64,000 nucleotides of DNA. Source: Brumimicrobium sp. (lineage in GTDB: Bacteria > Bacteroidota > Bacteroidia > Flavobacteriales_D > Crocinitomicaceae). Position numbers and translations under genes: made by a program. The notes beneath the pieces were generated by a model. It had not been told where the DNA came from and did no database searches. It saw only the letters and a program-made list of their open reading frames with translations. Positions 3,711 to 45,500 of this stretch are shown here, in pieces (the first letter of the stretch is position 1; every line of letters starts with the position of its first letter). The stretch covers positions 666,923 to 730,922 of the forward strand of contig JAMLGZ010000001.1 of NCBI GenBank assembly GCA_023957385.1. Direction: 5' to 3'.

Positions 3711-6700
3711 TCATTCTCTTTCAACCACCAACTTTCTGCTCACCTTCAACTCTCCGTTGTTATAAATGGCAATAATATACACCCCCTGTTTGAATCCTCT
3801 AGTGTCTATCACCTCTTCACCTTGATTGGATGAAAGTTTACCTTGTAGTTGCTCCCTACCACTTAAATCCACTACGCTATATCCAGCATCTTTTAAGTTG
3901 TCGTAGATATCCCACGATATACTTGTGTAGGAACTTGCTGGATTAGGATAAACTTTTACATTATACAAGATGTTGTTTAATTCTGCTGTGTTTGACGTAA
4001 ATGATGTAGGTTTTTGTTGTGACGTGTTTGGTAAGAGATTCTTCTCATAGCAGATGCCGTAGAAGAAACAGAGAATGTTTTGAGCATAACCTGCCACTCT
4101 TCCTTCCTCGCCTGCTAGAATTTGTAGATAATCAATTTCGGAAACGGTGAGTTGTGCTAGATTTCTGCTGCCAAGGCTTGCTCTAAAGGTGATGTAATTA
4201 TCCATCTGATTGATAAATGAAGTATTATCTTTCCATCTTTTATCTGTTTTTACAGTTTGTAAGACAGAGTCTGCCTTTTCGAATTCCAGATTTTCAATAA
4301 AGAAGTCCATAAGTGCTGTCTTTTGTGATAAATTGTTTCCCATTGAAGCTGTTTCCAAACGTTCCTGATAACTGTATGTTTCTGCTAAGTTTCGAATGTT
4401 TTTTACAAAATTTCTCGTACTTACCAATTGAGTATAAATGGAGGCTATTTGGCCTTCTAGTTGGGTGCGTAGAGTGAGTGCATCATAGTTATTCCTTACA
4501 TAATCTTTCATATAAGCAGGAAATGTATTATGTGTAGATTCATCAAGTTCTTGTAAGAATCGTTCGCCTTTTGTAGCATCTGGATTGGCAAGTAATATTT
4601 CCAGTAGCATGCCATTGGGAAGAACTCCGAGTGAAGCTGCATCCAATAACGCTTCCCTAGAAAGATAAGGCGATTATTCCAGTAAATTTCCTCGCAATGT
4701 CCAAGCATCCGAAGACCAATAATTTTCGATATACTCTTTTAATTCTTCTGTGTTACCATCGTCAATAAGCGTATGTAACGTATAATTCAAGTTATTGTAT
4801 GCTAAGGTGTAGTTCTCCAAGGCACTTGCTAAACTGTCTAAACCATTACCGGAAGATTTCATACCCACACTTCCTCCAAAACTGGTGAGGCAAGTGTGTG
4901 CAAACGTAGCTTCTTCCACTGTAATTGGCCCTGAATTATTAATAGGTTCTGCATTTGCTCCTTTATAAAAATACCGAATTGCACTTGTATAATTCTCAAT
5001 ATCCATCGTGTTATTGATAAAAGTGTTACCCGCTGAACTCGTAATGTACAAAGGATAGTAAAGACTAACGAAATCTCCCTGATTGTAACGTATGCCGTCA
5101 TCATTTTGTGTGGTAAATCCGATATATATTGCTTTTCCGTTCTCTTCAAAATTGTTACACAGAAATTGAAGTCCTTTACTATAACCTGTATTATGGTTTA
5201 CGCCTGTAGCTAAATTTCCATATTCATAGCCGTTTATGCTGTTTTTATATACACGGTTATCGTCCTCTCCACTGTTGCTAATAAAAATTCCAAAATCCAC
5301 AGGATTAGAAAAATTAGTGGTAAGTGTATTCTCTTCCACGATATACCCGGTAGAAGCATCGATAACAATTCCTGCACCTGTGTTTGAGCCAGTAAGCGTA
5401 TATCCTGCATCAGCTACTTCAATTTCATTACGGTTAATAGACACATTGTCCATTTCCTCTATCAATATATTCCACAAATTATCGGAAAACTCAGATTGCT
5501 CCACCCTAACCGTGTAAGATGTACTTGCTCCGGAAGCCTCCATTGCCATATTAAATCCCGAAAAACTGGATTTTAGTAAATCCTCACTTGGGCAAGGCTG
5601 CCCCACTGGCAAAAAAGGGTAATCACATCCTGCTTCTACTTTATATCCTGCGTTAATACTATAAATCCCTCTCATTGGAGCTGTGCTATTGTCTTTGTCT
5701 GTGGTGACATTATTTGCAAAATGGCAATTCATAAAACTAATACCATCAACATCCCACATAGTGACATGAGCATCTCTTTGTGGAAAGCCTTCTATATAAT
5801 CATTATCCGAAAAGAACTCTGTATTTCTAAAAAAGGAATGATTACCTACTTTTATATAAGATTTGGAGGGAGCAAAGTTTTGGTAAGTTGCAAAACCTAC
5901 ATCCACTCGGTTATTTCTAAAGATAGCATCTGTAGCTTGAATAACACCGCCAATTGCATCATAATCATTTGACTTCCAATTAGTAGCTCCCGCGTGCGCA
6001 TTTTCGATAGTCCCACCATTTCTAACAATTAATATGCCTTGATAGGTTGGCGATCCTTGTGGGTATTGGTTTTTGGTAGATGTACCCCAGACTTCAATGC
6101 CTTGCCAGTAGGAGTTATACTCATTCGTTAATGTTCCACCATCAATAATTAATTTTCCTCCTTGTTTAATAATTACTTTGCTGTCTGCTGAAAACCGAAC
6201 TGTTCCCGTTATCGTCAAAGTCGCTCCTTGTTCTATAATTAATGTGTCATTAATAAATTTATCTCCTGCCCATGAGGTATTGGCTGTTATTGGTGTAACC
6301 TTTCCATAAGTAGTTGCCATTAAAACAGCTTTGTATGCATTGATTCTTCCTGTTCCCACCATTCCTGGATAATTTGCTGCATCTGATATTGGGTCTGTTG
6401 TATTTTTAAGGATGTACTCAATATCTTGAGGCATCAAACATTGATTAATTGAATAAATTAAAGCTGCCGTTCCTGCAACAATGGGTGTGGCAAACGATGT
6501 TCCACCACTACTTCCATAATAAGGCCAAGGTCTATTACCACAATCTGTGAAAGTAGCCCCCATTATACCGTGCTCTGGCGAACAAATATCCACCATAGGA
6601 TAATGAGAATGAGTGATCTCTTGATTATCAGGATTAAATGTTTGATGTTTATCTTCATCATTCGTACTCGAAACTATAATGACTCTACTATCATAATATG

Positions 6701-7222
6701 GGGATAGTGGGAAAAAAGCTGTGTGATTATTTGGATCTATAGAAGCACAAAAATTGTGAGTTTCATTTTGCCCATTACCTGCGGGCATTATTATTGTTGT
6801 TCCATTATCCAATATTTCTTTAACAACAGCCTCTTCGATACCAGTTAAATCAGGACAAGAACTCCAACCACCTGCTGATGAAGTAATAATATTTGCTTTC
6901 ATAACCTTTGAAGCGTGATATGCACGTTGCAAATAATTACCTGCCAATGCTTTATATCCAATCATTTTAGTGTTAAACCCAATAGATGACAATTGACCAT
7001 TACTAGTTCCTCCTTGTTCTGTCGTTTCACCTGCAACCAAACTAGCTACTATTGTCCCATGTCTTGCATCATAGGATGTATCTTGTGTTAAAGGATTAAT
7101 TCTTATATACCCGTAAGAAGCAAAATAACAATCAAAAATTTCATTATCATAAGGATCATAGTTTAGAATAAATTCATTTGTTAAATCAGGATGAGTTAAA
7201 TCAAAATATGTATCAATGACTT
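3711..7222 (-). pseudogene. Subtilisin-like S8 serine protease with beta-helix region and T9SS type-A CTD, inactivated
   Basis: The frame is open from VIDTYFDLTHPDL (catalytic Asp at 7214-7212) through HGT (7061), PAGN and GTSFATP (Ser at 6497). An in-frame TAA at 4676-4674 (NLLE*SPYLSREALLDAASLG) joins track ORFs 4674..7040 and 3711..4646. The C-terminus is VKVYPNPASS...GVYIIAI...SRKLVVERE. There is no signal peptide or start codon, and the IS4 sits at the 5' break. Confidence 0.9.
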
Positions 7223-8657
7223 CACATTCATCCGAAAGTTTTTTAAAATTTGATACAAAACATCCTGTATCGTCCTATTTGTAATAGTCAATAATCATAA
7301 TGTGAGAAAAAAAGTCAAACAGTTAAAACATTTGGAGTTGTACCGTTGTCCACAAATCATCTTCTGGAGGAGGTTTCTCTGCTTTTTGGACAATCGGTCG
7401 GATAGTATTTATAACATAATCTAAGGAAAGATAGAATGGCAGACAAATTCTTATTTTTTCTACAAAGTTTGAAAAAGCCGTTTTCCCTGACACCCCAACT
7501 CTTCGTAAAAGTTCAAGTAGTAAATAGGTAATTAATGCAATAAATATTTGTGATTTTACTGCATTTTCAGAAGTTCCTATAAAAGTTTTGACATTGAGAT
7601 TTTGTTTTAAAAGCTTGAAGAAAGTTTCTATATCCCAACGCCTTCTGTATAGTTCTGCAATTGTTGAAGCTTTCCAAGAAAGATTATTAGTTATAATTTC
7701 TATCGTTGTATTTTTCTCTTCATGGTAGGCTACAACCTTTCTGAATTTCATTTGATTTATCCCAACTTCTTTTGCTTTTTGTCCTGTCAAATAAATAATC
7801 TCGTCTATTAAAATATGTTGATCCTCATTTTCTGGAAGATCTAATTCTTCAGCTACTTCATAAACAGTGTTTTCTTTTATTCTTGTAACAAAAACATTTT
7901 GGGACAACACCCTAGCTTTAATGATGTTAAAATCCCAATATCCTTTATCTTCAACAATAATCGTATCCTTTGGGAAAACAATTTCTTCAAATCCTTTTCT
8001 GTCATGAATAGATGCATTAGTGATATTCACAAGGTTAGGCATCATCATCGCCTCATCCCATTGCGTATGGATTTTAATTCCTCCTTTTGCTGTCCGAAAC
8101 TTTGCCCAATCAAAAAGCCCTAGACACACGCTAACTGTACTGCTATCACGAAGAAGAATAGTTTGATTTTTAACTTCTTCTACTACTTTTCGATGAGTAT
8201 GTCTTTTCAATAAATTACCGTAGTAGCTTAACAAACTCATATACAGACTCTCAAAGACTTTGTGGCTACGTTTTTTATTCCCATCACTCATCGTTGATTT
8301 TGCAGGACTTTGTTTTAAGTCTAAGTCCCGAATAAAGGTTTTCGACACACCAATACCAACAGAAATATCCTCTAAAGTACTACATCGAGACAGCTGTCCG
8401 AACAAATTTGCAACAAGTTGGTCATAAGTCTTGTATTTATGGCATCCCTTGTCAGAATTATGCTGTTGAATAACTCTTGCTAATAAATGTTGAGGAATTA
8501 AGTCAATAATTTGACGAATTACAGGCTTATTGTTATTTTTGTTCCTACGAAACAGTCCCATTTCATTTGAATTTTGTCGTGATTTTCAAATTTAAGAAGA
8601 CTGTTTCGGTTTTTTAATTTTTAATATGATTTTCTGAAAAAGTTTCGGATAGTTATG
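7223..8657 (-). mobile_element. IS4-family insertion sequence with target-site duplication
   Basis: Imperfect terminal IRs: CACATTCATCCGAAAGTTTTT (from 7223) versus the reverse complement of the right end, CATAACTATCCGAAACTTTTT (ending 8657). The flanking direct repeat CAATGACTT(CA) lies at 7214-7222(7224) and 8658-8666(8668). It is 9 bp if the IS starts at 7223 and 11 bp if it starts at 7225. Confidence 0.9.
7323..8561 (-). CDS. IS4-family DDE transposase
   Basis: 412 aa with DSST, DKGY and a YREK-like signature YRRRWDIETFFKLLKQ. The N-terminal region resembles DUF4372. Confidence 0.93.
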   Translation of the reverse strand: MGLFRRNKNNNKPVIRQIIDLIPQHLLARVIQQHNSDKGCHKYKTYDQLVANLFGQLSRCSTLEDISVGIGVSKTFIRDLDLKQSPAKSTMSDGNKKRSHKVFESLYMSLLSYYGNLLKRHTHRKVVEEVKNQTILLRDSSTVSVCLGLFDWAKFRTAKGGIKIHTQWDEAMMMPNLVNITNASIHDRKGFEEIVFPKDTIIVEDKGYWDFNIIKARVLSQNVFVTRIKENTVYEVAEELDLPENEDQHILIDEIIYLTGQKAKEVGINQMKFRKVVAYHEEKNTTIEIITNNLSWKASTIAELYRRRWDIETFFKLLKQNLNVKTFIGTSENAVKSQIFIALITYLLLELLRRVGVSGKTAFSNFVEKIRICLPFYLSLDYVINTIRPIVQKAEKPPPEDDLWTTVQLQMF

Positions 8658-8665
8658 CAATGACT

Positions 8666-9550
8666 TCATAATCTTATAACTTTTTTTACGATTAATAACT
8701 GGCTTTCAGTATTTGAAAGTGTTAAAAAATAGATTCCTCTACTGAGAAGAGTAACATCTACCTGAGCATGGGTTCTGAATTTACCTGAAATTAACATTTC
8801 TCCCTTTATGCTTGTTATATAGTAGTGAATCACATCGCTATTATATATATTTGAAATATTTAACATTTGTTCACTGGTTGGATTTGGGTAGATATTAATG
8901 TTATGATCTTCTAAAGATTCTAAGCCAACAGTGGTGCACAATCCTGTAAAATCCTGAAAATAGTTAAGACTATCTGATTTTACATGTTTGACAAGAGTTT
9001 TATTTTTTGTATTATAAGTATAATCAAATCCAAAATTTGTACCTATACCCTCAATAAATGTCAAGTGTTCATGAGTAAAATCATTTATTAAGTTTCCGAA
9101 TCGAATATGCTTTTTATTATTTTGGTAAAAGATGCTATCAACAACCACGTTAAAAGTATCAATAATTTGCTCATTTTGAATAGATCTTATAGGAATCGGG
9201 AAGGCGTCTCCTAAATTTAAGGATAAATCCATAATCAGCGTTTCTTCATTTACATTTCCATTATAAGGGGGAATAGAGGCAAAAAACCATAATCTTCCAT
9301 TAGTAGTATCTTCTCTAATAAAATTTGTATGATTATTGAAATCTGAAAAATTATTTAATACATGATATTGGTTGCCATTTATGTTCGTATCATTTATATA
9401 AACGATACTATCTATTTGGCAATTGATAAACTCAGGTGTTAACATTACTTTCAATTCAATCCAATGAGAAGATGGTTTTAGAACAGGTTCATACTGTGCA
9501 AAACTAACTCCTAAGAAGAGTAGAAATACTAAGAGGAGTGATTTTTTCAT
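8666..9550 (-). CDS. T9SS type-A sorting domain protein, function unknown
   Basis: Signal peptide MKKSLLLVFLLFLGVSFAQ and CTD INIYPNPTS...GIYFLTL...KKVIRL. Its TGA stop lies inside the right IS4 target duplication. Confidence 0.9.
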   Translation of the reverse strand: MKKSLLLVFLLFLGVSFAQYEPVLKPSSHWIELKVMLTPEFINCQIDSIVYINDTNINGNQYHVLNNFSDFNNHTNFIREDTTNGRLWFFASIPPYNGNVNEETLIMDLSLNLGDAFPIPIRSIQNEQIIDTFNVVVDSIFYQNNKKHIRFGNLINDFTHEHLTFIEGIGTNFGFDYTYNTKNKTLVKHVKSDSLNYFQDFTGLCTTVGLESLEDHNINIYPNPTSEQMLNISNIYNSDVIHYYITSIKGEMLISGKFRTHAQVDVTLLSRGIYFLTLSNTESQLLIVKKVIRL

Positions 9551-9798
9551 AATAGTTATTTTTAATGATTGCCTTACTAATTTACGATAATATATTCAAA
9601 TAAAAAAATATATTTTGGGGTTTAGGAGTAAGCTATCGTTATAAAGGTTGAATACCGATAGCTGTCGATGGGATAGTTTGGTATTTCTTTGTTATTTTCA
9701 AATACTCATTCCATAATTCATTGATATATAGTGATATTTTGTTAATAAAATAGTTAAAATACGGCATATTACGTATTTTTTGTAAAAATCACATTCAC

Positions 9799-9806
9799 TA
9801 CTTTTG
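9799..9806 (+). promoter_or_regulatory. Candidate -7 element (TACTTTTG) for the beta-helix/DPG-repeat operon
   Basis: Matches TAnnTTTG about 35 bp upstream of the ATG at 9841. A second match (TATTTTTG) lies near 9735-9742. Confidence 0.45.
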
Positions 9807-9840
9807 TTCAATTATATAACCTATTAAAATTGATAAATTT

Positions 9841-11142
9841 ATGAAAACAAAAAAACTAATCGTAGGAATTTTTTCTACTATCATGATGGCGTTTAATGTG
9901 AACGCTGCAGACTTATGTGTAAGTGAATCTGGTTCAGGAGGATGTTACTCTTCAATCTCGGATGCCATAGCTGCTGCTGCAGATGGAGATAGAATATTAA
10001 TTCAACCTAAAACTGGAGGGGCTTCCTATACAGAAAATTTCATCATTAATAAATCTGTTCAATTATTGTCTAATACAGAAGGAGTTATGTGGGTAATGAC
10101 AGGGAATATTACTGTTACGCCTGCAATAGGAAGAAAAATTTCTATCTTACACATGAAAAACAATACTGGGTATATTGCCGCAACTGGAGCTAGTCCTGCA
10201 GGAGCGCGTTGTGAAGTCAATATTATGAATTGTGAGTTATTGGGTGGATATATTAATTTCAACTACGATTATTTTAATGCAAATATTATTTCTAATATAA
10301 TTAATAAGGGATATATAGCCATCCGATTTGGAAATGTGATCGGGAATGAAATTAAAAACACAACTGCTGGTCAAGGATTAAGTAATGGTAGTGGTTATTA
10401 TCTAAGTTGTATTACTGTTAATACTGATGGACTGGTATCGAATGATACACTTAACATTGTGGGGAATATGATGACAATTGATGCAGGAAATTACCCAAAT
10501 TTTATCTATTGGAATAATTCTTCCCAATTTTTTAATATTATGAATAATTATGGATACAATTCATCATCTCCATCAAATTATGATACTTACTATTTGACTA
10601 TTGCTGCCGCTAAAAACTCTGCTTTAACAACTAATAAGATTATTAATAATACGATTTACACTAGGATGTATTATGCAAATAGAGCACGTGGTATTTATTT
10701 TCCATTTAATAATTCAAGTTACCCAAATAGTAAATTTGATGTGCTAAATAATTTGTTACTAGGAGATGTGTCAAGTACAGTAATGATTTCGGATAATACC
10801 GGAACTAATACAATCTCCTGCTCCTATAATTATTTGAACAATGGAAGTGTAATTTATGGTATAACAGATGATGGCACTAATAATGCCAACTCAAATACAA
10901 CAATCAATACAACTACTGGTAAAATGAATATTGGTTCTGATGGTTTTAATGCAGGATATCCAGATTTTACTTATTATGATATAGATTTAACTCAGAATGA
11001 TGTGGGTTGTTATGGAGGTTCATTTACGTTAGATAACTTTTTCCCAATTACAGGTGCAGCTCGTGTATTCTTTGTAAATGCTCCAAGAACTATTCTGCAA
11101 AGTGGAACCTTAAACATCAAAGCAAATTCGTTTGACAGATAG
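9841..11142 (+). CDS. Secreted right-handed parallel beta-helix (pectin-lyase-like fold) protein with no T9SS CTD
   Basis: Sec signal ending VNA/ADL. The N-cap YSSISDAIAAAADGDRILI is typical of beta-helix proteins, followed by Asn/Ile-rich coils (NIISN, IVGN, IINN, VLNN) and a C-cap D-x-G-x-Y-G-G (NDVGCYGG). It ends in a short beta-rich tail with no YPNP. Confidence 0.8.
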   Translation: MKTKKLIVGIFSTIMMAFNVNAADLCVSESGSGGCYSSISDAIAAAADGDRILIQPKTGGASYTENFIINKSVQLLSNTEGVMWVMTGNITVTPAIGRKISILHMKNNTGYIAATGASPAGARCEVNIMNCELLGGYINFNYDYFNANIISNIINKGYIAIRFGNVIGNEIKNTTAGQGLSNGSGYYLSCITVNTDGLVSNDTLNIVGNMMTIDAGNYPNFIYWNNSSQFFNIMNNYGYNSSSPSNYDTYYLTIAAAKNSALTTNKIINNTIYTRMYYANRARGIYFPFNNSSYPNSKFDVLNNLLLGDVSSTVMISDNTGTNTISCSYNYLNNGSVIYGITDDGTNNANSNTTINTTTGKMNIGSDGFNAGYPDFTYYDIDLTQNDVGCYGGSFTLDNFFPITGAARVFFVNAPRTILQSGTLNIKANSFDR

Positions 11143-11186
11143 TATTCAAAAGAAAATTGAGAATTAATAAACTAAATCTTTTGAAT

Positions 11187-14100
11187 ATGAAACGATTGTT
11201 TAATCCATACTTTCTGCTGATGGTGCTATTTGTTATGGCTACCAGCTACGGATTTTCTCAGCGAAAACTCGTGGAAGCAGAGTATTTTATCGATGCTGAC
11301 CCAGGTGAAGGGAGTGGTATTTCGGTAATAGCAAGTGATGGAAATATAGACAATGCAGTTGAATCATTATTTAAAAATGGGATTTCTGTTGGAGCGGTCG
11401 GCTTACACACGTTTAACATTCGTGTAAAAGATGACCAAGGCGATTGGGGGCCTATTTTTAAGACTGTATTTTATGCAGCGTCTACACTTACTAAACGTAA
11501 TATCAAAGTCTCTCAGGCAGAATTGTTCTGGGATGCCGATCCAGGAGAAGGAAATGGTACAACTGTACTGGCTTTCGATGGGAATTTTAGTGATGCCGTC
11601 GAAGTACTTGCAGCTACTATTTATACACTTCCTTCAGTTGGAGTTCACACCATGAATATCCGTGTAAAGGATGTGCAAGGAACTTGGGGACCAATATTTA
11701 CTTCAGTCATAAATATTACCAATTCCATGGTAATACGAACTCCTAAAATAACTGTTGCTGAAATGTTCTTTGATAGTGACCCAGGAGAGGGGAATGGTAC
11801 TACAGTATTGGCTTATGATGGAAATTTCAACAATGCTATCGAAGCCTTAACTTCTACTATATTCACACTTCCAACAGTTGGTGTACACTCTATGGGTATC
11901 CGTGTGAAAGATGCGCAAGGAATCTGGGGTCCTGTTTTTACCACAGTGTTAAATATTACGAGTCCGCTTGTGAAACGTAATCCAAAAGTAACATTAGCTG
12001 AGTTATATTGGGATACTGATCCAGGAGAGGGTAGTGGTACTCCATTATTAGCTTTTGATGGTAATTTCAATGACGCTATTGAGGCCTTGACTGTATCTAA
12101 CCTGACTATTCCAGGAACAGGTATTCATACATTGAATGTTCGTGTGAGTGACGGTAGTAATTGGGGTCCTGTTTTTACCACATTGATGAATATTACATCT
12201 CCTTTGGTATTGAGAGACATAAAAATTACTGCCGGCGAATATTTTTGGGATACAGACCCAGGACAAGGTAATGGTTCACCGTTGTTAGCTTTTGATGGGA
12301 ATTTCAATGATGCAATTGAATCATTGTCAGAATCAGGAGGAAGCTTACCTGCTTATGGTGTTCATTTATTTAATGTTCGTGTCAAGGATGCTCAAAATAA
12401 TTGGGGCCCTGTTTTTAAAACGATTATTGATATAACTACGCCATTGGCTTTACGTGGAATTAAAGTGAAGAAAGCAGAGTTCTTCTTTGATAATGATCCA
12501 GGACAAGGTAACGGAAATCCTTTATTGGCATTTGATGGTAATTTTGATAATGTCATTGAAGACCTTCATCAGTCATGGGCATATATCCCTGATACAGGCT
12601 TACATGTTTTAAATGTGCGTGTAGAAGACTTTAATGGGAATTGGGGACCTACCTTTAAAACAGTAGTTAAAGTAGAGCCATGTTTAGCACATCCAACTAT
12701 TGCGATTACACCTAGTTCCACTCAGTTAATTTGTCCGGGTGATGAGGTGAATTTCTCAGCAGATGCTGGATTTTCGTCTTATACTTGGTTTAAGGGTGGA
12801 ACAATAGTAGGAACAGGTCAGACATTTGATGCTGATACTTCTGGTTTCTATCGTGTTTACGCTGTGGATAATGACGGTTGTGGTGTATTCTCAGACTTTA
12901 CTGAGGTAAAGATTAGCTATTATGATGCTTCAATTACGGCAAATGGTCCAACTACTTTCTGTCAAGGAGGTAATGTTGTGTTAACTGCTGCAAGTGGTGC
13001 TACTTCCTATTTATGGAACACAGGTGCTACTACTCAAGGTATTAATGTAGCTTCCTCAGGAACGTATGTAGTAACTGTTTCAAATGGAAATTGCTTAGGT
13101 ACAGATACGGTTAATGTAGTAGTAAATCCTAATCCAAGTACTCCTGTGATTACGGCTAATGGAGCTACTTCATTTTGTGCTGGAGGTGACGTAGATTTGA
13201 CTTGTATTACACCAGCAGCTGCTTATTCTTGGAGTACCAATGAATATACACAGACTATTACTGCTAGTAGTCAAGGTACATATACAGTTACCATATTTGA
13301 TGCAAATAATTGTAAGAGCACTTCTAGTATCAATGTTTCTATATTCCCTAACCCAATTTCAAGTGTTAGTGGTAACGTGAATATTTGTCAGGGAGATGAT
13401 GCGCAATTATTTGTAAATGGTGGTTCTTCTTATGTATGGTCGCCTGCAGTTGGTTTAAGTGATCCAACTATTTCAAATCCAATTGCTAATCCTTCTTCTT
13501 CTACACAATACAAAGTTGTGGTAACTGGAATAGGAGGATGTGTAGATTCGGCTACTGTAAATGTATTTGTGAATCCAGCTCCAATAGTGACAGCCTCTGT
13601 AAGTGCAACTACTTTATGTACAACAGAGTCTCTTCAACTATCTGCCTCTCCTAACGGAGCGACATCTTATGTGTGGACTGGCCCAGGAGGATATTACAGT
13701 ACGAGTCAGAATCCAATGATTCCTTCAGTAAATAGTTCACATAATGGAACGTTTTCGGTTACAGCTTACTATCCTTCTGGTTGTTATACAACTGGTTCAG
13801 TAAGTGTAACGGTAAATCCAGGACCAACAGCGTATGTTTCGGCTAACAAAACCGACTTCTGTGTGGGTGAGGATTTGAATCTTTCAGTGCTACCTAATGG
13901 AATGACTTATTCTTGGGTAGGACCAAATGGATTTATGAGTACAGATCAAAATCCAAGTATCACTGGTCTAGATGGTTCAAATGATGGAGCGTATGTCGTA
14001 ACAGTTGATAATGGATTGTGTAGTTCTACTGCAACTATTCAAATCAATGTGGCAGGTTCAATATCAGTTAATGCGAGTTCCAATCTAACTACTTTATGTA

Positions 14101-16433
14101 CAGGAAATACTTTACACTTAACTGCTTCTGCAAGTGGTGCAACAGTATTTAGTTGGACAGGTCCGAATGGATTTACAAGCTCTCAACAGAACCCTAGTTT
14201 TGTTACGAGTTCTGCGAGTCAAAGCGGTATTTATACTGTAGTAGCTTCCAATACTGCCGGATGTTCTGTATCTAGTAGTGTAAATGTAACGGTGAATCCT
14301 TCACCAACTGCATTTGCTTCTATTGGTAGTCCAACAATCTGCTCAGGAGAAGATATTGAATTATTTGCTTTGCCAAATGGTTTGAGTTATGCTTGGACAG
14401 GTCCGAATGGATTTACGAGTACAGATCAAAATCCAGTTATCCTAAATGCTACAGGAGCTAATCAAGGTTCTTATACATTGGTAGTGGATAATGGTTCTTG
14501 TAATGCTATTAGTTCAGTTTCCGTAATTGTAAACACATCACCAACCATTACTGCAGGTGTTAATTCATCAAATGTATGTGAGGGAAGTGTGTTAAGCTTT
14601 ACAGCAACTCCTAGTGGGGGTACATCTTACTTATGGACAGGTCCAAATGGATTTAATAGTTCTAATCAAAATCCGATTATTAATGCAACAAATGCAAATC
14701 ATAGCGGAAAATATGTGGTAACTGTTGAAAATTCATTTGGTTGTAAGGCAAAAGACTCTGTTACTGTAACAGTACATAATGCTATAGCTCCATCTATCTC
14801 AGCTAATTTCACAGATATCTGTGAAGGACAAACTTTAAGTTTAGTTGGATTGCCAAGTGGTATGTCATCTTATAGTTGGGTAGGTCCAAATGGTTATACA
14901 AGCAGTAGTCCTGCACCAAATATTACAGGAATTTTACCAACACAACAAGGTAAATATTTTGTAACCATGACTAATGGTATTTGTACTGCAACAGATTCTA
15001 TCCAGATTACAGTAAAAGCAACACCAACTATTTTTGCGACGGCAAATGATAATACGCTTTGTGAAGGAAGTGTATTGATTTTATCCGCTACAACGAATAG
15101 TGGAACTAGCTTTAGTTGGACAGGACCAAATAGTTTTGCTAGTTTGGATCAATATCCAAGTTTTGCTTCTGTTTCTATGGCAAATGCAGGTACTTATTCT
15201 GTTACAACGACACACCCAAATGGGTGTCAGGCAACAGATGATATTACCATTATCATTAGTCCAGTACCAAATGTTTCAATTTGGGCAAATAGCTTGACAC
15301 TTTGTGAAGATGAGACATTGAAATTGTATTCTGGACCAGATAGCATGTATTCGTATGATTGGACAGGACCAGATGGATACAATATATCTACTCAAAATCC
15401 ACAGTTGTCTAGCCTACAGTTTGCGCATCAAGGTATGTATGTAGTAACAGTTAGTGATAGTATTTGTAGTGCTTCAGATTCTCTTTATGTGACAATTAAG
15501 TCACTACCAGAGATTCATGCAACAGCGAATAACACTTTGTTATGTGAAGGAAGTGTATTGAATTTAAGTGCCAGTCCATCTGGAGCAGTTAGCTATGAAT
15601 GGAATGGACCAAATGCATTTAACGCAAATACACAAAACACTACATTAACAGCAGTGATACCAACAAATAGTGGTGATTATATTGTTACAGCATATAATTC
15701 AGATGGTTGTTATAACAGTGACACCATTGCTATTTCTGTGGTAAATGGAATTCAAGCAATTATCTCAACTGACGCTTCCGTTTGTGAAAAAACAGACATT
15801 GAATTGTTTGGTTTACCGAATGGTATGGTGAGTTACCAATGGTCAGGTCCGGATGGATTTACTAGTTCAGACCAAGACCCGATAATAGCTGCTGTAGGAA
15901 TGGCTGCAAATGGTATATACTCTTTGACAGTGTCTTCAGACGTATGTAGTTCTACAACAAACTATACCGTTACAGTGAAGCCAGCACCAAATACATCTGT
16001 CACTCAGATTGGTTCAGTATTAAATGCAGATTTAAATAATGCTAATTATCAATGGGTAAGCTGTGATAATGCATTTGAATCAATTGTTGGCGCAACAAGT
16101 CAAACATATACAGCAACTGAGAATGCAGATTTTGCGGTTATAATAGTATATGACGGTTGTGTAGATACTTCTGATTGTTATTCTATTACAGGATTAGGAT
16201 TAGAAGAGCTATCATTGGATGGTTGGGGTATTTATCCAAATCCAAACAATGGTACATTCTACATTACAGCCAATAAAGAAGCTGTTTTTGAATTACATGA
16301 TATGAATGGCAAACTCGTAGCTGTTTACGATGCAAAAACATATCCACAAGAGGTGAAACTAGAGGTGGAACCTGGAATGTATTTTGTGCGTGAAAAAGAA
16401 AGCGGGGAAACCAAGAAAGTAATCATTAAATAG
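11187..16433 (+). CDS. Large T9SS type-A cargo: six 80-aa DPGxGxG repeats, about 14-15 Ig-like stalk repeats and a CTD
   Basis: The ATG at 11187 gives a signal peptide (the track starts at TTG 11157). DPG motifs occur at 11298, 11538, 11778, 12018, 12255 and 12495. The stalk repeats carry C-x-G...Y-x-W-x-G-P. The CTD is WGIYPNPNNG...PGMYFV...KKVIIK. Confidence 0.92.
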   Translation: MKRLFNPYFLLMVLFVMATSYGFSQRKLVEAEYFIDADPGEGSGISVIASDGNIDNAVESLFKNGISVGAVGLHTFNIRVKDDQGDWGPIFKTVFYAASTLTKRNIKVSQAELFWDADPGEGNGTTVLAFDGNFSDAVEVLAATIYTLPSVGVHTMNIRVKDVQGTWGPIFTSVINITNSMVIRTPKITVAEMFFDSDPGEGNGTTVLAYDGNFNNAIEALTSTIFTLPTVGVHSMGIRVKDAQGIWGPVFTTVLNITSPLVKRNPKVTLAELYWDTDPGEGSGTPLLAFDGNFNDAIEALTVSNLTIPGTGIHTLNVRVSDGSNWGPVFTTLMNITSPLVLRDIKITAGEYFWDTDPGQGNGSPLLAFDGNFNDAIESLSESGGSLPAYGVHLFNVRVKDAQNNWGPVFKTIIDITTPLALRGIKVKKAEFFFDNDPGQGNGNPLLAFDGNFDNVIEDLHQSWAYIPDTGLHVLNVRVEDFNGNWGPTFKTVVKVEPCLAHPTIAITPSSTQLICPGDEVNFSADAGFSSYTWFKGGTIVGTGQTFDADTSGFYRVYAVDNDGCGVFSDFTEVKISYYDASITANGPTTFCQGGNVVLTAASGATSYLWNTGATTQGINVASSGTYVVTVSNGNCLGTDTVNVVVNPNPSTPVITANGATSFCAGGDVDLTCITPAAAYSWSTNEYTQTITASSQGTYTVTIFDANNCKSTSSINVSIFPNPISSVSGNVNICQGDDAQLFVNGGSSYVWSPAVGLSDPTISNPIANPSSSTQYKVVVTGIGGCVDSATVNVFVNPAPIVTASVSATTLCTTESLQLSASPNGATSYVWTGPGGYYSTSQNPMIPSVNSSHNGTFSVTAYYPSGCYTTGSVSVTVNPGPTAYVSANKTDFCVGEDLNLSVLPNGMTYSWVGPNGFMSTDQNPSITGLDGSNDGAYVVTVDNGLCSSTATIQINVAGSISVNASSNLTTLCTGNTLHLTASASGATVFSWTGPNGFTSSQQNPSFVTSSASQSGIYTVVASNTAGCSVSSSVNVTVNPSPTAFASIGSPTICSGEDIELFALPNGLSYAWTGPNGFTSTDQNPVILNATGANQGSYTLVVDNGSCNAISSVSVIVNTSPTITAGVNSSNVCEGSVLSFTATPSGGTSYLWTGPNGFNSSNQNPIINATNANHSGKYVVTVENSFGCKAKDSVTVTVHNAIAPSISANFTDICEGQTLSLVGLPSGMSSYSWVGPNGYTSSSPAPNITGILPTQQGKYFVTMTNGICTATDSIQITVKATPTIFATANDNTLCEGSVLILSATTNSGTSFSWTGPNSFASLDQYPSFASVSMANAGTYSVTTTHPNGCQATDDITIIISPVPNVSIWANSLTLCEDETLKLYSGPDSMYSYDWTGPDGYNISTQNPQLSSLQFAHQGMYVVTVSDSICSASDSLYVTIKSLPEIHATANNTLLCEGSVLNLSASPSGAVSYEWNGPNAFNANTQNTTLTAVIPTNSGDYIVTAYNSDGCYNSDTIAISVVNGIQAIISTDASVCEKTDIELFGLPNGMVSYQWSGPDGFTSSDQDPIIAAVGMAANGIYSLTVSSDVCSSTTNYTVTVKPAPNTSVTQIGSVLNADLNNANYQWVSCDNAFESIVGATSQTYTATENADFAVIIVYDGCVDTSDCYSITGLGLEELSLDGWGIYPNPNNGTFYITANKEAVFELHDMNGKLVAVYDAKTYPQEVKLEVEPGMYFVREKESGETKKVIIK
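11265..12680 (+). repeat. Six tandem coding repeats of about 240 bp
   Basis: DPG codon spacing is 240, 240, 240, 237, 240 bp. Consensus: AE(Y/L/M/F)x(W/F/I)DxDPG(E/Q)G(N/S)G..(L/I)(L/A)A(F/Y)DGN(F)xxA(I/V)E...G(L/V/I)Hxx(N/G)(I/V)RVxD...WGP(V/I/T)F(K/T)(T/S). Confidence 0.95.
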
Positions 16434-16452
16434 TCTTAAGTTTATCAATTAG

Positions 16453-16482
16453 AAAGCCGTCTCTAAAAGAGGCGGCTTTTTT
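16453..16482 (+). terminator. Rho-independent terminator after the T9SS cargo operon
   Basis: Stem AAAGCCGTCTCT / AGAGGCGGCTTT with an AAA loop, followed by a T-tract. Confidence 0.85.
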
Positions 16483-16516
16483 AATGGTAAATCTTTTCTA
16501 TCTTCTATTTCCTCCT

Positions 16517-16524
16517 TACCTTTG
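16517..16524 (+). promoter_or_regulatory. -7 element (TACCTTTG) directly before the DUF3109 start
   Basis: Consensus match ending 4 nt before the ATG at 16529. Confidence 0.6.
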
Positions 16525-16528
16525 CATC

Positions 16529-17113
16529 ATGTTAATACAAATTGGAGATAAAATAGTAACAGATGAGCTTTTCACACGAAAGTTCATGTGTGATTTGAAT
16601 AAATGTAAAGGTGCTTGCTGTGTAGAAGGAGAGGATGGAGCACCGGTAACAACAGATGAAATCAAAATCATAGAAGAGCTATTACCGAAAATAAAACCCT
16701 ATATGATTCCAGAAGGGATTGAGAAGGTAGAGAAAGATGGAGTGGCTCATGCTGATAAAGATGGTGATATGGTTACTAATCTCGTGAGTAATGGGGCATG
16801 TGCTTTTGTTTTTTATGATGAGAGAGGAATAGCTAAATGTGCTATTGAGAAAGCATATCGCAATGGAGATATTAATTGGAAAAAACCTATTTCATGTGAA
16901 CTTTTCCCTATTCGAGCCAAGAAGTTCCCTGAATTTACTGCCTTGAATTATGAAGAAATTGACATATGTAAACCTGGCTGTATTTTGGGCGAAAAGATGA
17001 ATATCCCTTTATACCAATTCTTAAAAGATGCTATCATACGTGCTTATGGAGAAGAATTCTATCAGGAGTTAGATAAAGTATTCCTAGAAATTCAAAAAGA
17101 AGAGAACGAATAA
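16529..17113 (+). CDS. DUF3109 family Cys-rich protein
   Basis: F-x-C-D-L-x-x-C-K-G-A-C-C-V-E-G, CAIEKAY and KPISCELFPIR motifs. Start moved from 16484 (which overlaps the terminator and promoter) to ATG 16529. Confidence 0.85.
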   Translation: MLIQIGDKIVTDELFTRKFMCDLNKCKGACCVEGEDGAPVTTDEIKIIEELLPKIKPYMIPEGIEKVEKDGVAHADKDGDMVTNLVSNGACAFVFYDERGIAKCAIEKAYRNGDINWKKPISCELFPIRAKKFPEFTALNYEEIDICKPGCILGEKMNIPLYQFLKDAIIRAYGEEFYQELDKVFLEIQKEENE

Positions 17114-18455: not shown

Positions 18456-19796
18456 CTAAAAATCTAAATACCAAGAAGCGATACTAAAATATATCAGTAC
18501 TCCGCTAATATCAGCAATGGTTGTAATAAGAGGCGCACTTGCTGTTGCGGGGTCTATCTTTAGTTTAGTAAAGATGAATGGTAATAAGAGTCCTACGACA
18601 CTACCCATTAAGACAATTGCCAACATGGTTAAGGCAACAACTACAATTACTTCTGGTGCACGAAAACTAGCTACAAGAGAAACACCTAAAGCCATTGTTA
18701 GACCTAATATTAAAGACACTGCAAATTCTTTAGTAATTAGGCGATACCAATCACTCATTTTGACATCTCCCATTGCAAGTGAACGTATCATTAAAGTAGC
18801 TGTTTGCGATCCTGCATTTCCACCACTATCAATGAGAAGAGGTAAGAAAAATACAAGTGCTACATATTTACCTATAACGTCTTCAAAACTAGCAAGGATT
18901 CCACCAGAAAATAGATTCATGAAAACTAAAGCTATCAGCCAGAAAATACGATTTTTGTATAAATCAAAAATACGTGCAGTTAATGGATTGGAAACGGCAC
19001 TTTGAAAGGCTCCAAATTTATGGAAGTCCTCAGAAGATTCTTCTTCCTGAACGTCCATAATATCGTCAAAAGTTACAATACCTAACAAAACACCTTTGTC
19101 ATCCACTACTGGAAGAGCCACTCTATTACAATCTTTAAAAATTCGGATGGCAGTTTCTTGGTCTTCAGAAGCCTTTAACGAAATAAACTGATGGTTTACT
19201 AAATCGTCTATTATTTGCTCTGGCTCTGCTAGAATTAAATCTTTTATAGTAATATCATCAACTAATTTCCAGTCCTTATCAACAATATAGATTACGTTAA
19301 GTGTTTCGGAATTATGTCCGAATTTTCGTATATGTTGAAAGGTTTTTTCTACGGTGAAAGTAGGTCGTATAGCTACAAATTCTGTAGTCATCAAACGCCC
19401 AATACTGTCTTTGGGATAGCCTAATAATTGATTGGTGATATTGCGTTGTTCTTCTGATAATTGTTTGATAAGACGTTGTGCTACTTCACCTGGTAATTCT
19501 GCTAAAAATGCAGTACGGTCATCTGGGTCAATATCGTTTAATAGTTGAGCAATTTTATTGGCGTTTTCGGCTAAATCTTCGATAATTTCTTGTTGTCCTT
19601 CAAGTGAAAGAAGTTTAAACACTTCGCGAGTTTGATCATTGTTTAACAATCGGAAGAGAATGATTTTATCTCTTCTTGAAATTTCTTCAAAAAGTTCAAA
19701 TACAGAATATGGCTCAAGGTTTTCAACTTCTTGCTTGAGTTTTTTCCATTCTTGATTTTCAATCATGGATAGTATCTTTTCTATCTCTTCTACCAT
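18456..19796 (-). CDS. mgtE: Magnesium transporter MgtE
   Basis: N-domain, CBS pair (GRLMT, LPVVD), DSGGNAGSQ and ITTIAD motifs. The likely start is MVEEIEK at 19796 (track start 19850). Confidence 0.95.
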   Translation of the reverse strand: MVEEIEKILSMIENQEWKKLKQEVENLEPYSVFELFEEISRRDKIILFRLLNNDQTREVFKLLSLEGQQEIIEDLAENANKIAQLLNDIDPDDRTAFLAELPGEVAQRLIKQLSEEQRNITNQLLGYPKDSIGRLMTTEFVAIRPTFTVEKTFQHIRKFGHNSETLNVIYIVDKDWKLVDDITIKDLILAEPEQIIDDLVNHQFISLKASEDQETAIRIFKDCNRVALPVVDDKGVLLGIVTFDDIMDVQEEESSEDFHKFGAFQSAVSNPLTARIFDLYKNRIFWLIALVFMNLFSGGILASFEDVIGKYVALVFFLPLLIDSGGNAGSQTATLMIRSLAMGDVKMSDWYRLITKEFAVSLILGLTMALGVSLVASFRAPEVIVVVALTMLAIVLMGSVVGLLLPFIFTKLKIDPATASAPLITTIADISGVLIYFSIASWYLDF

Positions 19797-42568: not shown

Positions 42569-45500
42569 ATGTTTAAACAGATTCGGAAATTACTGATTTT
42601 ATTTCTATTAGTTATGTATGCTTTTACTGCCAGAGCCACGCATGGTATGGGAGGTGATATTACATGGCATTGCTTAGGGAATGGACAGTATATTTTTGAA
42701 TTGAAATTCTATCGAGATTGCAATGGCTTTGATGTGAATATCAACTATGAAACACTTCAAGTATGGGGACATCCTAATTTGACATCTATTCAAGTTAATT
42801 ATATTTCTAGAACGGATATTTCTCCTACTTGTACTCCTGCCTCTGGATATGTTCCTTTTACTTGTGGTTCTGGAACAGGAGGAGGGAGTGGAGTAGGTGC
42901 TGTTGAAGAGATTTTGTATCGCAGTGACCCAATTTCAATTAGTGGAACTCCACCTGTAGCAGGTTGGAAATTCACCTTCCAAAATTTCTCGAGAAGCGCT
43001 AATTTAACTAATATTCAGAGTCCTACGACGTATGGAATCACTCTCTCAGCAACAATGTACCCAGTACCTGGAAATACAGGCGGTTGTATCGATAACTCAC
43101 CCATATTCTTACAATCTCCGTATATTGTAAGTTGTGCCGGAGAACAGTATGAATACAATCCCAATGTTGTAGATCCTGATTTGGATTCTCTCGTTTTTGA
43201 TTGGGGTAAACCGTTGGATTATTTTCCGACAGGTTCTTTTTCACCTCCTACTAATCCAGCACCTGTTCCTTTTGTGGCCGGTTTTTCGTATGATAATCCT
43301 ACTCCAGGACCTGGGTTTAATGCTGGTAACCAAGCTGCTGTCTTAGACTCTGAAACAGGTAAAATGACGTTCAAATCCTTTACCATTGGAAATTTTGCTA
43401 CTAAGATTGTGATTGATTCCTATCGTGCGGGAATTAAAATTGCTTCGGTAGAAAGAGAAACACAGTTGATTATCAATAATTGTAGCGGTAATAATAATGC
43501 ACCTGTAATTACACCTCCATTTGCAAGTGGAACATCCTTTGAAACTGAAGTCTTTGCAGGCGATTTAGTACAGTTCAGTATAAATGTGACTGACAATGAT
43601 AATCTACAAAATGGAAATCCGCAATCTGTAACCGTATCGTCCTCGGGATTAATGTATGGTGCTAACTTCACTAATCCGGGAGCAGGTTGTTCTATTATAC
43701 CCTGTGCCACGTTGGCCGCACCAAGTGTAACGAATGTGCAGACTGCTACTTTGGGATTTGATTGGCAAACTTCATGTGATCATTTAGTTGATGCCACCGG
43801 AAATGCACAAGCAAAGAAGACCTATGTTTTTGTATTTAAAGTGCAAGATGATTATTGCCCTATTCCTATGGTGAAATATGCAACGGTTAAAGTTACCTTG
43901 AAAAATAAAGATGTGTTACCCGCTCCTACGATTAAATGTATTTCTTATCAACCCAATGGTGATGTAAAAATTGAATGGGATCCCGTTTCTGATCCGTATG
44001 GAACATTTAGCGGATATAAAATTAATGGAGTAAATGGTGGGGTTTATGGAATGGTAAATAATATCAATGCTAACTCGTATATTATTGTAGGAGGTGTCGT
44101 AGCTCCCGAACAGTTCTTTGTTTCAACTATGTCAGGATGTGGAGGTTTGACAGCTCGTAATTCTGATACGATTTCAAGTATATTCTTAACTCTTGATAAT
44201 CCGGGTGATGGACGTGCAAAATTAAATTGGACTCAACCTCATATACCACCTCTTCCTTCTTTCGGAAATAATTATGATATTTATAAGGAGTATCCAGCAG
44301 GAATATGGACACTAATCAATACAGTTCCATACGGAACAACTGTCTATTTCGATACAATTACTACGTGTAGTGACTGGATTAATTATAAGGTGGTTTTATC
44401 AACTCAAACATGTGATTTTGTGAGTAATGTTGTGGGTGATGTTTTTAAAGATAAGATTGTTCCTGATATGCCAACTATCTATAGTGCAAGTGTGGATACA
44501 TTGTCTGGAAACATCATAATTACTTGGGATGTAAATAAACAGGAAGATACTTATGGATACGTTATATATATGGAAGATCAATTCGGAAATATTGTTCCAA
44601 TTGATACGGTTTGGGGAAGGAATAATACGACATATATTTATGCCCCTTCCTACAGTGATGCTTATAAATATTCAGTAGCGGCATTTGACTCATGTTATAC
44701 TACAAATATTCCTCCTACGTATCAGACTTCAGCTAAAGCAGAGCCTCACACAACTATTTATCTACAAAATGAAGTAGATGTATGTGCTCGTTTGGTAACA
44801 CTTAACTGGACGAAATATGAAGGTTGGCAGGGAGTAGATCATTATAACATTTATGTCCGTAAGAATGGACAAAGTTGGGTGTTGGAAAGTCAGGCTAACG
44901 GATTAAGTTACTCGATGGATATAGTAGCGGGAGATATTATTGTTGCGGTTGTAGAGGCAGTTTCAACTGACGGAATTAGAGCCTTTTCCAATAGGGATAC
45001 TGCTAATTTTGTTGGTACTGCAGGACCTTCTATGTCGTATTTAAGCGTAGCTACAGTGGATGGTGAAAATGTTCGTATTCGATATAGAATTTCAACGGGA
45101 GAAAGCGCTCAAAGTGTTCAACTTCAAAGGTGGAATCCGCAGATTCAAGAATTTGAAAAGATTGATGAAAAAGCAGTAGGTAATGATGAGGAAATTTCCT
45201 TCATTGATTCAGATGTAGAGGTAAATAGGAGATCATATACCTATCGTGCAAAAATTATTGATACGTGCGGAAGATTTGTGAGTTATTCCAATATTGGAAG
45301 GACCATGTATCTCACTGTATCCACAGATCAAGCTAATGAGACTCATACTTTACAGTGGAATCCGTATGAAGATTTTATAGGTGGATTGTTGATGTATCAA
45401 GTTTACCGTGCTATCGATGGTGAAAATTTTGGAACTACCGCTATTGCAACTCTTCCATATAATGTACGAACTTTTGTTGATACCATTGGGGTTATTTCTA

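Follow-up and report, generated by a model that had tools for sequence, protein, structure and literature searches.

A conserved two-gene cassette of Bacteroidota that pairs a beta-helix protein with a type IX secretion cargo, and a possible role for the beta-helix tail in docking and co-export

The two-gene locus described here is, in concept, nearest to three known systems: the cohesin-dockerin scaffoldins of clostridial cellulosomes, the partner-dependent type-B cargo of the T9SS (the type IX secretion system), and hitch-hiking through the twin-arginine translocation (Tat) pathway. It is a member of none of them. It lies in a stretch of 64,000 nucleotides of Brumimicrobium sp. (assembly GCA_023957385.1, contig JAMLGZ010000001.1, positions 666,923 to 730,922), which we call the window. 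The locus comprises gene 1 (the 'head') and gene 2 (the 'carrier'), both on the + strand, which form a single cassette; the window contains one copy of this self-contained pair, which is conserved across the Bacteroidota. Both protein families lack annotation and a solved structure, and the literature searched contained no description of the cassette.

The scaffoldins of Clostridia also consist of an anchored protein with a tandem array of small modules. Their partners are encoded separately and carry a conserved C-terminal docking segment (docking is what we propose here) on divergent bodies, and one scaffold can serve several partners, as would be the case at two loci described below (L081 and L165). 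However, neither gene 1 nor the modules of gene 2 give a Cohesin (PF00963) or Dockerin (PF00404) match, and Dockerin_1 occurs only at the ends of some carriers at other loci. A cohesin is a jelly-roll of about 140 amino acids (aa), whereas the module of gene 2 is an 80-aa unit of four strands and one helix. In addition, the tail of gene 1 lacks the duplicated calcium-binding repeat of dockerins, the host of the cassette is Gram-negative and anchoring is by a T9SS C-terminal domain (CTD). Finally, the partners in the cassette, whose binding we infer, are encoded immediately upstream in the same operon.

T9SS cargo that have CTDs of type B are paired with cognate PorP/SprF-like proteins, the partner being an outer-membrane beta-barrel shuttle or anchor (PMC9143113, PMC12618676). 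This is also a Bacteroidota-specific, two-gene logic in which a T9SS cargo has a dedicated adjacent partner. In the cassette, by contrast, the cargo is of type A and not PF13585/TIGR04131, and its partner, encoded upstream, is a soluble protein of beta-helix fold that does not resemble PorP/SprF. In Tat hitch-hiking a folded protein without a signal crosses the inner membrane bound to a signal-bearing partner. Here the likeness is in concept only, since both the machine and the membrane are different and the co-translocation is presumed. This co-export of signal-less subunits has been reviewed (PMC9251779).

Gene 2 taken alone, with its signal peptide, repeat stalk and Por_Secre_tail, resembles the ordinary type-A fibrillar adhesins of the T9SS, which carry immunoglobulin (Ig)-like, SprB or RCC1 repeats. 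No described adhesin family, however, includes an N-terminal array of 80-aa modules together with an obligate upstream beta-helix gene. A more distant comparison is with chaperone-usher and type V pili, where a short strand-forming segment, disordered alone, completes or extends the sheet of a partner's small beta-rich module. The cassette differs from these in that there is no homology, the module as predicted by AlphaFold does not look obviously incomplete, an usher is lacking and nothing implies polymerisation.

The pairing of the two genes is essentially obligate in both directions. A scan with the gene 1 profile, using one genome per species, yielded 200 relatives, of which the best 80 loci were examined. 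The next open reading frame (ORF) on the same strand bears one to seven modules, starting at the mature N-terminus, in 79 of these, and the sole exception (L017) is truncated by the end of its contig. A metagenome scan seeded with the module yielded 79 loci; five have no upstream sequence and, in the remaining 74, a gene 1 homologue is always found directly upstream. The same is true for five of five hand-picked module proteins from different subfamilies. The question raised by the sequence-only reading, whether module proteins mostly occur without a beta-helix neighbour, can thus be answered in the negative. The window follows the same rule, with a gene of the gene 1 family directly upstream of, and on the same strand as, a gene with N-terminal EYFWDTDPG modules. 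Spacers are short: in 149 pairs the median is 18 nucleotides (nt), with 115 of 30 nt or less and 23 in which the genes overlap. Clustering of the ORFs from about 160 loci shows only genes 1 and 2 to be shared, with no third conserved neighbour.

Judged by record titles, the cassette appears to be restricted to Bacteroidota-type genomes. It is present in Flavobacteriales, Chitinophagales (including Saprospiraceae), Cytophagales and in metagenome-assembled genomes (MAGs) labelled Bacteroidales and Marinilabiliales. Bacteroidota-type cassettes also occur in MAGs with other labels: L020 and L032 (Bifidobacterium/Bifidobacteriaceae), P0097/L165 (Verrucomicrobia) and P0033 (Calescibacterium). The most likely cause is an error in binning or labelling, not horizontal transfer. 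A single orphan module was found, in an RCC1-repeat CTD protein of Chryseobacterium sp. CH25 (L071, 5158-9405). The module is degenerate (DPGKRNG, no WGP), no gene 1 homologue lies upstream and the preceding gene looks fragmented; this is a decayed copy adjoining an intact cassette. In about 26-30 loci the cassette has as neighbours a histidine kinase of the TPR-HisKA_3 type and a LuxR-type response regulator (for example, L003 7495-9854, - strand, and L163 615-3484, + strand), which hints at possible two-component control in some lineages. The other widely recurring ORF cluster is an antisense ORF within the modules, present in 89 loci (window 11813-12070, - strand; L002 11626-12060, - strand). 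This looks like a shadow ORF of the conserved repeats and not a gene.

Gene 1 starts with MKTKKLIVGIFSTIMMAFNVNA, followed after the predicted cut by AD. This is a typical Sec signal peptide judged by eye. A22 and D24 are invariant in the family, and the protein is not of the lipobox type because the Cys at aa 26 is not conserved. Gene 1 has no match at E<=0.01 in Pfam or NCBIfam and therefore no T9SS CTD of either type A or type B; sequence comparison with the PDB gives chance matches only. AlphaFold2, with an alignment of 20 sequences, predicts a right-handed beta-helix from aa 24 to about aa 360, with a predicted local distance difference test (pLDDT) value mostly of 85-97 and a predicted template modelling (pTM) score of 0.82. 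Regular strand triplets run from aa 24 to aa 351. The description of gene 1 in the sequence-only reading, as a beta-helix protein with a Sec signal and without a T9SS CTD, is accurate. Foldseek identifies generic beta-helices only (PL6 lyases, pectin methylesterases, lacto-N-biosidase and phage tailspikes), with weak E-values, the best of which is 1.3e-3.

The family includes at least 386 hypothetical proteins of 390-458 aa. At a threshold of E<=1e-30, a profile search of 1.84 billion representative proteins gave 295 clusters (50% identity), a number that rises to 753 at E<=1e-10; nearly all of the best 150 are 380-440 aa long. Conservation is about 2.0-3.3 bits per column in the N-cap (aa 22-71) and in aa 372-433, and about 1-2 bits in the helix body, whose approximately 340 aa are the least conserved part of the protein. 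The invariant positions of the body are Asn-ladder and Gly residues. The conservation profile includes no catalytic constellation, K71 and D202 being the only candidate functional residues. Given this, and the lack of Pfam, NCBIfam and PDB sequence matches, gene 1 does not belong to PL1/3/6/9, GH28 or CE8. Conservation of this kind, limited to the Asn ladder and Gly residues, is more in keeping with a head that binds or serves a structural role than with an enzyme. The initial suggestion that the beta-helix might bind or cleave polysaccharide finds no support in these residues or in the generic fold matches.

The conserved C-terminal region (aa 372-433) includes a C-cap motif, DLDLTxNDxGxYGGS, and a terminal tail of 39 aa ending in FDR, of which ARVFFVNAPRTILQSGTLNIKANSFDR represents aa 407-433. 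In the AlphaFold2 model the helix is confident and the last 60 or so residues have a pLDDT of less than 50. A segment that is conserved yet is not placed by AlphaFold carries the usual signature of one that would fold on a partner. The tail had initially been described as beta-rich. It is indeed present at the expected position, but AlphaFold leaves it unstructured and at low confidence. As had been anticipated, homologues carry the same tail, which is both conserved and strictly C-terminal: 260 of 261 family members end no more than six residues from the end of the profile, and 234 end exactly there. A free C-terminus following ...FDR/K is therefore a rule of the family.

Loci with several heads show a mosaic conservation of gene 1. 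At L081, one six-module carrier lies downstream of three tandem gene 1 paralogues, among which identity is 31-32% in the bodies and 92-94% in the tails. The tails differ by 12-19 synonymous codons, and for this reason their likeness indicates purifying selection and not only recent gene conversion. A fourth paralogue at this locus precedes a different carrier, with three modules, and its tail is only 50% identical. At L165 a single six-module carrier follows four tandem paralogues, and identity is 31-42% among the bodies compared with 68-73% among the tails. Two possible origins of the tail were considered and rejected using hhalign: a partial copy of the module (probability 0.3%) and, as homology, a cryptic type-A CTD (probability 0.3% against 98 partner CTDs).

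Gene 2 starts with MKRLFNPYFLLMVLFVMATSYGFS, followed by Q, a typical signal peptide with n, h and c regions (judged by eye). Partners at other loci share this layout: signal peptide, Q, 2-8 aa and then the first module. The six modules of gene 2 (79-80 aa each, aa 26-503) match their own hidden Markov model (HMM) profile with E-values of 1e-39 to 1e-43. They are 42-65% identical to each other and have the motif AEYFWDTDPGxGNG...DGNF..A.E...G.H.LN.RVKD....WGPVF. This is close to the consensus of 294 copies, aEyFwDtDPG.Gngt..lA.DGnf..A.E...G.H.ln.RvkD....WgpvF, in which the abundance of invariant acidic residues suggests that the module may bind Ca2+. More than 800 module proteins were found. 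The modules belong to no family in Pfam, NCBIfam or the PDB, where only sub-threshold Y_Y_Y matches and, for the PDB, chance matches were obtained. Precomputed Pfam tags on module proteins (PF27503 Rv3811_N, PF07495 Y_Y_Y and others) are faint or below cutoff and do not name the module. AlphaFold2 predicts a strand, the DPGxGNG loop, a short strand, a helix, a long strand and a further strand, with the modules strung like beads (pTM 0.34; pLDDT 84-95 for the first). Foldseek matches the array only to generic FN3-type tandem arrays, with a template modelling score of about 0.2. The modules are followed by 15 Ig-like repeats of about 78 aa each and by a CTD that scores above the curated cutoffs both of TIGR04183 (37.6 bits, E = 1.6e-9; cutoff 23) and of PF18962 (33.1 bits; cutoff 27), which makes gene 2 a predicted type-A cargo. 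The sequence-only reading had arrived at the same architecture, with about 14-15 repeats and a Sec signal.

The carriers vary in both the number of modules and in what follows them. Carriers with one to seven modules number 5, 23, 36, 23, 20, 21 and 5, respectively, in 133 unique pairs, and a type-A CTD closes at least 98 of the 133. The region past the modules may be absent or may consist of Ig-like repeats, SprB repeats, RCC1 propellers or fn3 domains. Minimal carriers, which include cases in cultured Flavobacterium and Chryseobacterium strains, contain only a signal peptide, one to three modules and Por_Secre_tail. Flavobacterium strains with such minimal cassettes include F. cauense R2A-7 (L079, with two modules and a CTD), F. 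silvisoli RD-2-33, F. sedimenticola YZ-48, F. lotistagni CYK-4 and F. mekongense TBRC 19031. For example, the carrier of L076, with 182 aa, is composed of a signal peptide, one module and a CTD, and that of L078 has two modules and a CTD. In such cassettes the modules are therefore the only content of the partner besides its export signal. The mean number of modules is 3.7, 5.1 and 6.0 for one, two and three tandem heads (numbers are small). A correspondence between two tail types and two module classes, observed at L032, L046 and L025, was too weak to retain, with non-canonical modules also present in 16 of 150 single-head loci. In a single carrier, from a Hymenobacteraceae MAG (L073, 6341-12451), the modules do not stand at the N-terminus; the six of them, which are non-canonical, come after two Laminin_G_3 (ConA-like lectin) domains. 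Chryseobacterium sp. c4a (L080, 3-15744) has three complete cassettes in tandem, with gene 1 copies 81-97% identical and RCC1-type payloads on the carriers, and this points to a probable recent amplification of the whole pair.

The sole exception to the free C-terminus rule is a natural fusion, P0375 (553 aa, GCA_020629755.1, L164). From N- to C-terminus it has a signal peptide, the beta-helix and the tail (...LSINSIGYSY), which a link of 5 aa joins to one module and Por_Secre_tail. As the carrier part lacks its own signal peptide, P0375 is a genuine gene fusion rather than a read-through. It shows the helix to be compatible with export in cis by the T9SS, and that a module can begin five residues after the tail ends.

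We propose that gene 1 would be exported by Sec to the periplasm and would fold there as a beta-helix whose surface is free to vary among relatives, with a conserved tail that would not fold alone. The carrier would present, at its mature N-terminus, one to seven (here six) 80-aa alpha/beta modules, followed by an optional stalk and the CTD. The tail of gene 1 would dock onto these modules, and the carrier CTD would take the assembly over the outer membrane through the T9SS and leave it on the cell surface. Attachment of type-A cargo is by the C-terminal end (PMC8545088), so that the modules at the N-terminus and any heads bound to them would be held far from the cell. The stoichiometry of heads and modules is presumed, as are the ligands that the heads would bind. 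Passage of a folded complex is conceivable, given that the T9SS can export a model substrate of mCherry fused to a CTD and has a very large translocon, a barrel of 36 strands (PMC10994853, PMC10202324). The obligate pairing, the conserved and strictly C-terminal tail, the carriers with nothing but modules and a CTD, the near-identical tails on divergent bodies among paralogues with a common carrier, and the natural fusion all fit a tail that docks on a multi-module carrier, and in this respect the sequence-only interpretation is partly supported. We regard docking of the tail on the modules, with co-export of gene 1 to the cell surface by the carrier, as the best supported of the explanations, with about an even chance of being correct. 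It is a more tentative suggestion, which we would not yet favour, that the cassette is the first hitch-hiker route through the T9SS, in which folded beta-helix proteins without a CTD dock by their tails on a CTD carrier to give a cellulosome-like, multivalent display of interchangeable heads.

A number of observations weigh against docking and co-export. The low pLDDT of the tail could stem in part from the shallow, 20-sequence alignment. The tail shows no homology to either the module or the CTD, and the sequences thus give no structural rationale for complementation; moreover, the AlphaFold module resembles a closed two-layer unit and not an obviously incomplete fold. Mutual information with average product correction, calculated in 112 pairs between gene 1 columns and a per-protein module consensus, gives the tail a share of 0.18 of the top 50 column pairs compared with 0.15 expected, so that the tail is not enriched. 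Both module classes occur in the 16 one-head loci mentioned above, so that a simple rule of one tail type for one module type fails. Some carriers end in a Dockerin_1-like segment of Ca-binding repeats (DxNGDGxVD, NDRDPIL) instead of a T9SS CTD (L025 ~18900-19086, L044 ~15540-15706 and P0148 aa 640-740), and such ends occur in some Chitinophagaceae-type loci. Both sets of loci are the best-scoring 80 of larger lists and may miss weak or divergent orphans. No precedent for piggy-backing, hitch-hiking or a CTD-less passenger in the T9SS was found in the literature searched.

Gene 1 might instead be a periplasmic chaperone or assembly factor. Its tail would transiently cap or complement the modules before export of the carrier, much as pilus chaperones do by donor-strand complementation, and gene 1 would then stay behind, leaving the modules to function at the surface. 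This would account for a protein with a Sec signal but no signal for export over the outer membrane, for the obligate adjacency with gene 1 in first position, for the tight or overlapping spacers and for a conserved tail that is disordered when alone. A chaperone should, however, be conserved, and it is the 340-aa helix body that is conserved least. The role does not require three or four divergent paralogues for one carrier and, in the natural fusion, the helix is permanently fixed to the exported polypeptide. We consider this explanation unlikely, although it is the best of the alternatives.

Another explanation is that the last 60 or so aa of gene 1 are themselves a new secretion or sorting signal, read by the T9SS or by another outer-membrane route. 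The two proteins would then be exported independently and act together outside, with or without binding. The segment is strictly C-terminal, as are T9SS signals, it is conserved across the phylum, and the cassette seems confined to Bacteroidota-type genomes. Against this, it matches no type-A or type-B CTD model and has no profile similarity to the CTDs of the partners. The 39 aa past the helix cap are too short for the seven-strand CTD sandwich (PMC11285876), and no compact domain is predicted. At L081 the tails track the identity of the carrier, which is unexpected for a universal export signal, and carriers with only modules and a CTD are left unexplained. It appears distinctly improbable.

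The least probable explanation, to which we attach very little weight, is a non-interacting, co-transcribed pathway pair, such as a periplasmic glycan-active beta-helix enzyme and a substrate-capturing surface adhesin: beta-helices are common in polysaccharide lyases and hydrolases (and Foldseek matches include PL6, pectin methylesterase, lacto-N-biosidase and tailspikes) and the module array resembles adhesin-type tandem arrays, but gene 1 lacks conserved catalytic residues and falls in none of the Pfam, NCBIfam or PDB families, ORF clustering of about 160 loci shows no conservation of a transporter, SusC/D or any other pathway gene in the neighbourhood, the pairing is far tighter than is usual among pathway neighbours, and the mosaic conservation of the tail and the fusion remain without explanation.

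The features of the locus in the window are collected in Table 1.

Table 1. Coordinates of the cassette and its signals in the window (position 1 is the first nucleotide of the window)
Feature	Position	Strand	Basis
Candidate Bacteroidota -7 promoter box, TACTTTTG	9799..9806	+	fit to TAnnTTTG, by eye; low confidence
Gene 1, 433-aa secreted beta-helix protein without T9SS CTD	9841..11142	+	ORF
Gene 1 Sec (signal peptidase I-type) signal peptide, aa 1-22, cut after NVNA	9841..9906	+	by eye
Gene 1 right-handed parallel beta-helix, aa 24-~360	9910..10920	+	AlphaFold2, conservation profile
Gene 1 conserved C-terminal region, aa 372-433 (C-cap and tail), proposed docking tail	10954..11139	+	conservation
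Intergenic spacer, 44 nt, without terminator, AT-rich hairpin	11143..11186	+	consensus scan, folding
Gene 2, 1748-aa T9SS type-A cargo	11187..16433	+	ORF, domain matches
Gene 2 Sec signal peptide, aa 1-24, mature +1 = Gln	11187..11258	+	by eye
Six tandem 80-aa modules	11262..12695	+	own HMM profile
Modules 1-3	11262-11501, 11502-11741, 11742-11981	+	
Modules 4-6	11982-12218, 12219-12455, 12459-12695	+	
Stalk, 15 Ig-like repeats, aa 507-1668	12705..16190	+	Ig_2/Ig_7/PKD_6-type matches
T9SS type-A C-terminal sorting domain, aa 1682-1748	16230..16430	+	TIGR04183, PF18962
Intrinsic terminator, 11-bp stem (one G-U pair), 5-nt loop, U-run	16453..16482	+	folding

The operon layout of the sequence-only reading, two same-strand genes 44 bp apart with a strong terminator only after the second, is reproduced by the ORFs, the consensus scan and RNA folding. 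The ATG of gene 2, 44 nt past the gene 1 stop, is at position 11187 and an in-frame TTG at 11157 provides an alternative start. Between the genes the consensus scan detects no terminator; an AT-rich hairpin is all that is present. This is formed by the inverted repeat UAUUCAAAAGA...UCUUUUGAAUA, in which bases following the gene 1 stop pair with those before, and extending into, the gene 2 AUG (11143-11186; -13.9 kcal/mol; z = -2.2, which is weak). Translation of gene 2 could in this way be coupled to termination of gene 1. The terminator after gene 2 was missed by the simple consensus scan and recovered by folding: the hairpin (16453-16479) with its U-run has an energy of -19.7 kcal/mol and z = -6.0, and none of 200 shuffles folds equally well. 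Upstream, the candidate -7 box is 35 nt from the gene 1 ATG. A sigma-70 promoter scan gave 23 sites compared with 32 expected, using a model that is not informative for Bacteroidota promoters.

In protein sequence the window is 100% identical to a Brumimicrobium sp. MAG, and the same DNA is found in sludge and wastewater metagenomes. A strain from a sludge metagenome (run X1) shows 44 substitutions over 7 kb compared with the window. The 40 that are listed fall in 9578-10299 (upstream and the first third of gene 1) and in 13600-14666 (part of the Ig-like stalk), with none in the tail or the modules. In the candidate gene 1 promoter, a related sludge strain departs from the window at 9801 and at the putative -33 TTG. 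An activated sludge metatranscriptome (run X19) includes 100%-identical fragments of both genes, none of which crosses the junction; these may be taken as a weak sign of expression only.

The window encodes other T9SS cargo: a type-B (CHU_C) protein of 1110 aa (42569-45901, + strand) and two small type-A CTD proteins (3711-4646 and 8666-9550, both - strand). The organism therefore uses both CTD classes and this, with its place in the Flavobacteriales, is indirect evidence of a T9SS in the host. Close to the cassette, a Peptidase_S8 ORF and an IS4-type DDE transposase (DDE_Tnp_1 and DUF4372) lie side by side (4674-7040 and 7323-8561, both - strand). The Peptidase_S8 ORF matches its profile only from position 81, its N-terminal part being missing, and is probably a disrupted protease gene. 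Downstream, the DUF3109 profile starts at residue 17 of the ORF 16484-17113, whose listed ATG at 16484 abuts the U-run of the terminator; translation probably starts instead at the ATG at 16529.

For two sizeable families that lack annotation, the analysis provides a first handle on function. If the tail does bind the module, the two would constitute a compact docking pair (about 40-60 aa and 80 aa), usable for the display of enzymes on Bacteroidota cells. Docking and co-export could also prove to be a new means of carrying folded partners over the outer membrane. T9SS cargo are currently recognised by their C-terminal domain. If the proposal is true, predictions of T9SS secretomes based on CTDs would systematically miss such passengers, and the secretomes would be larger than CTD searches suggest.

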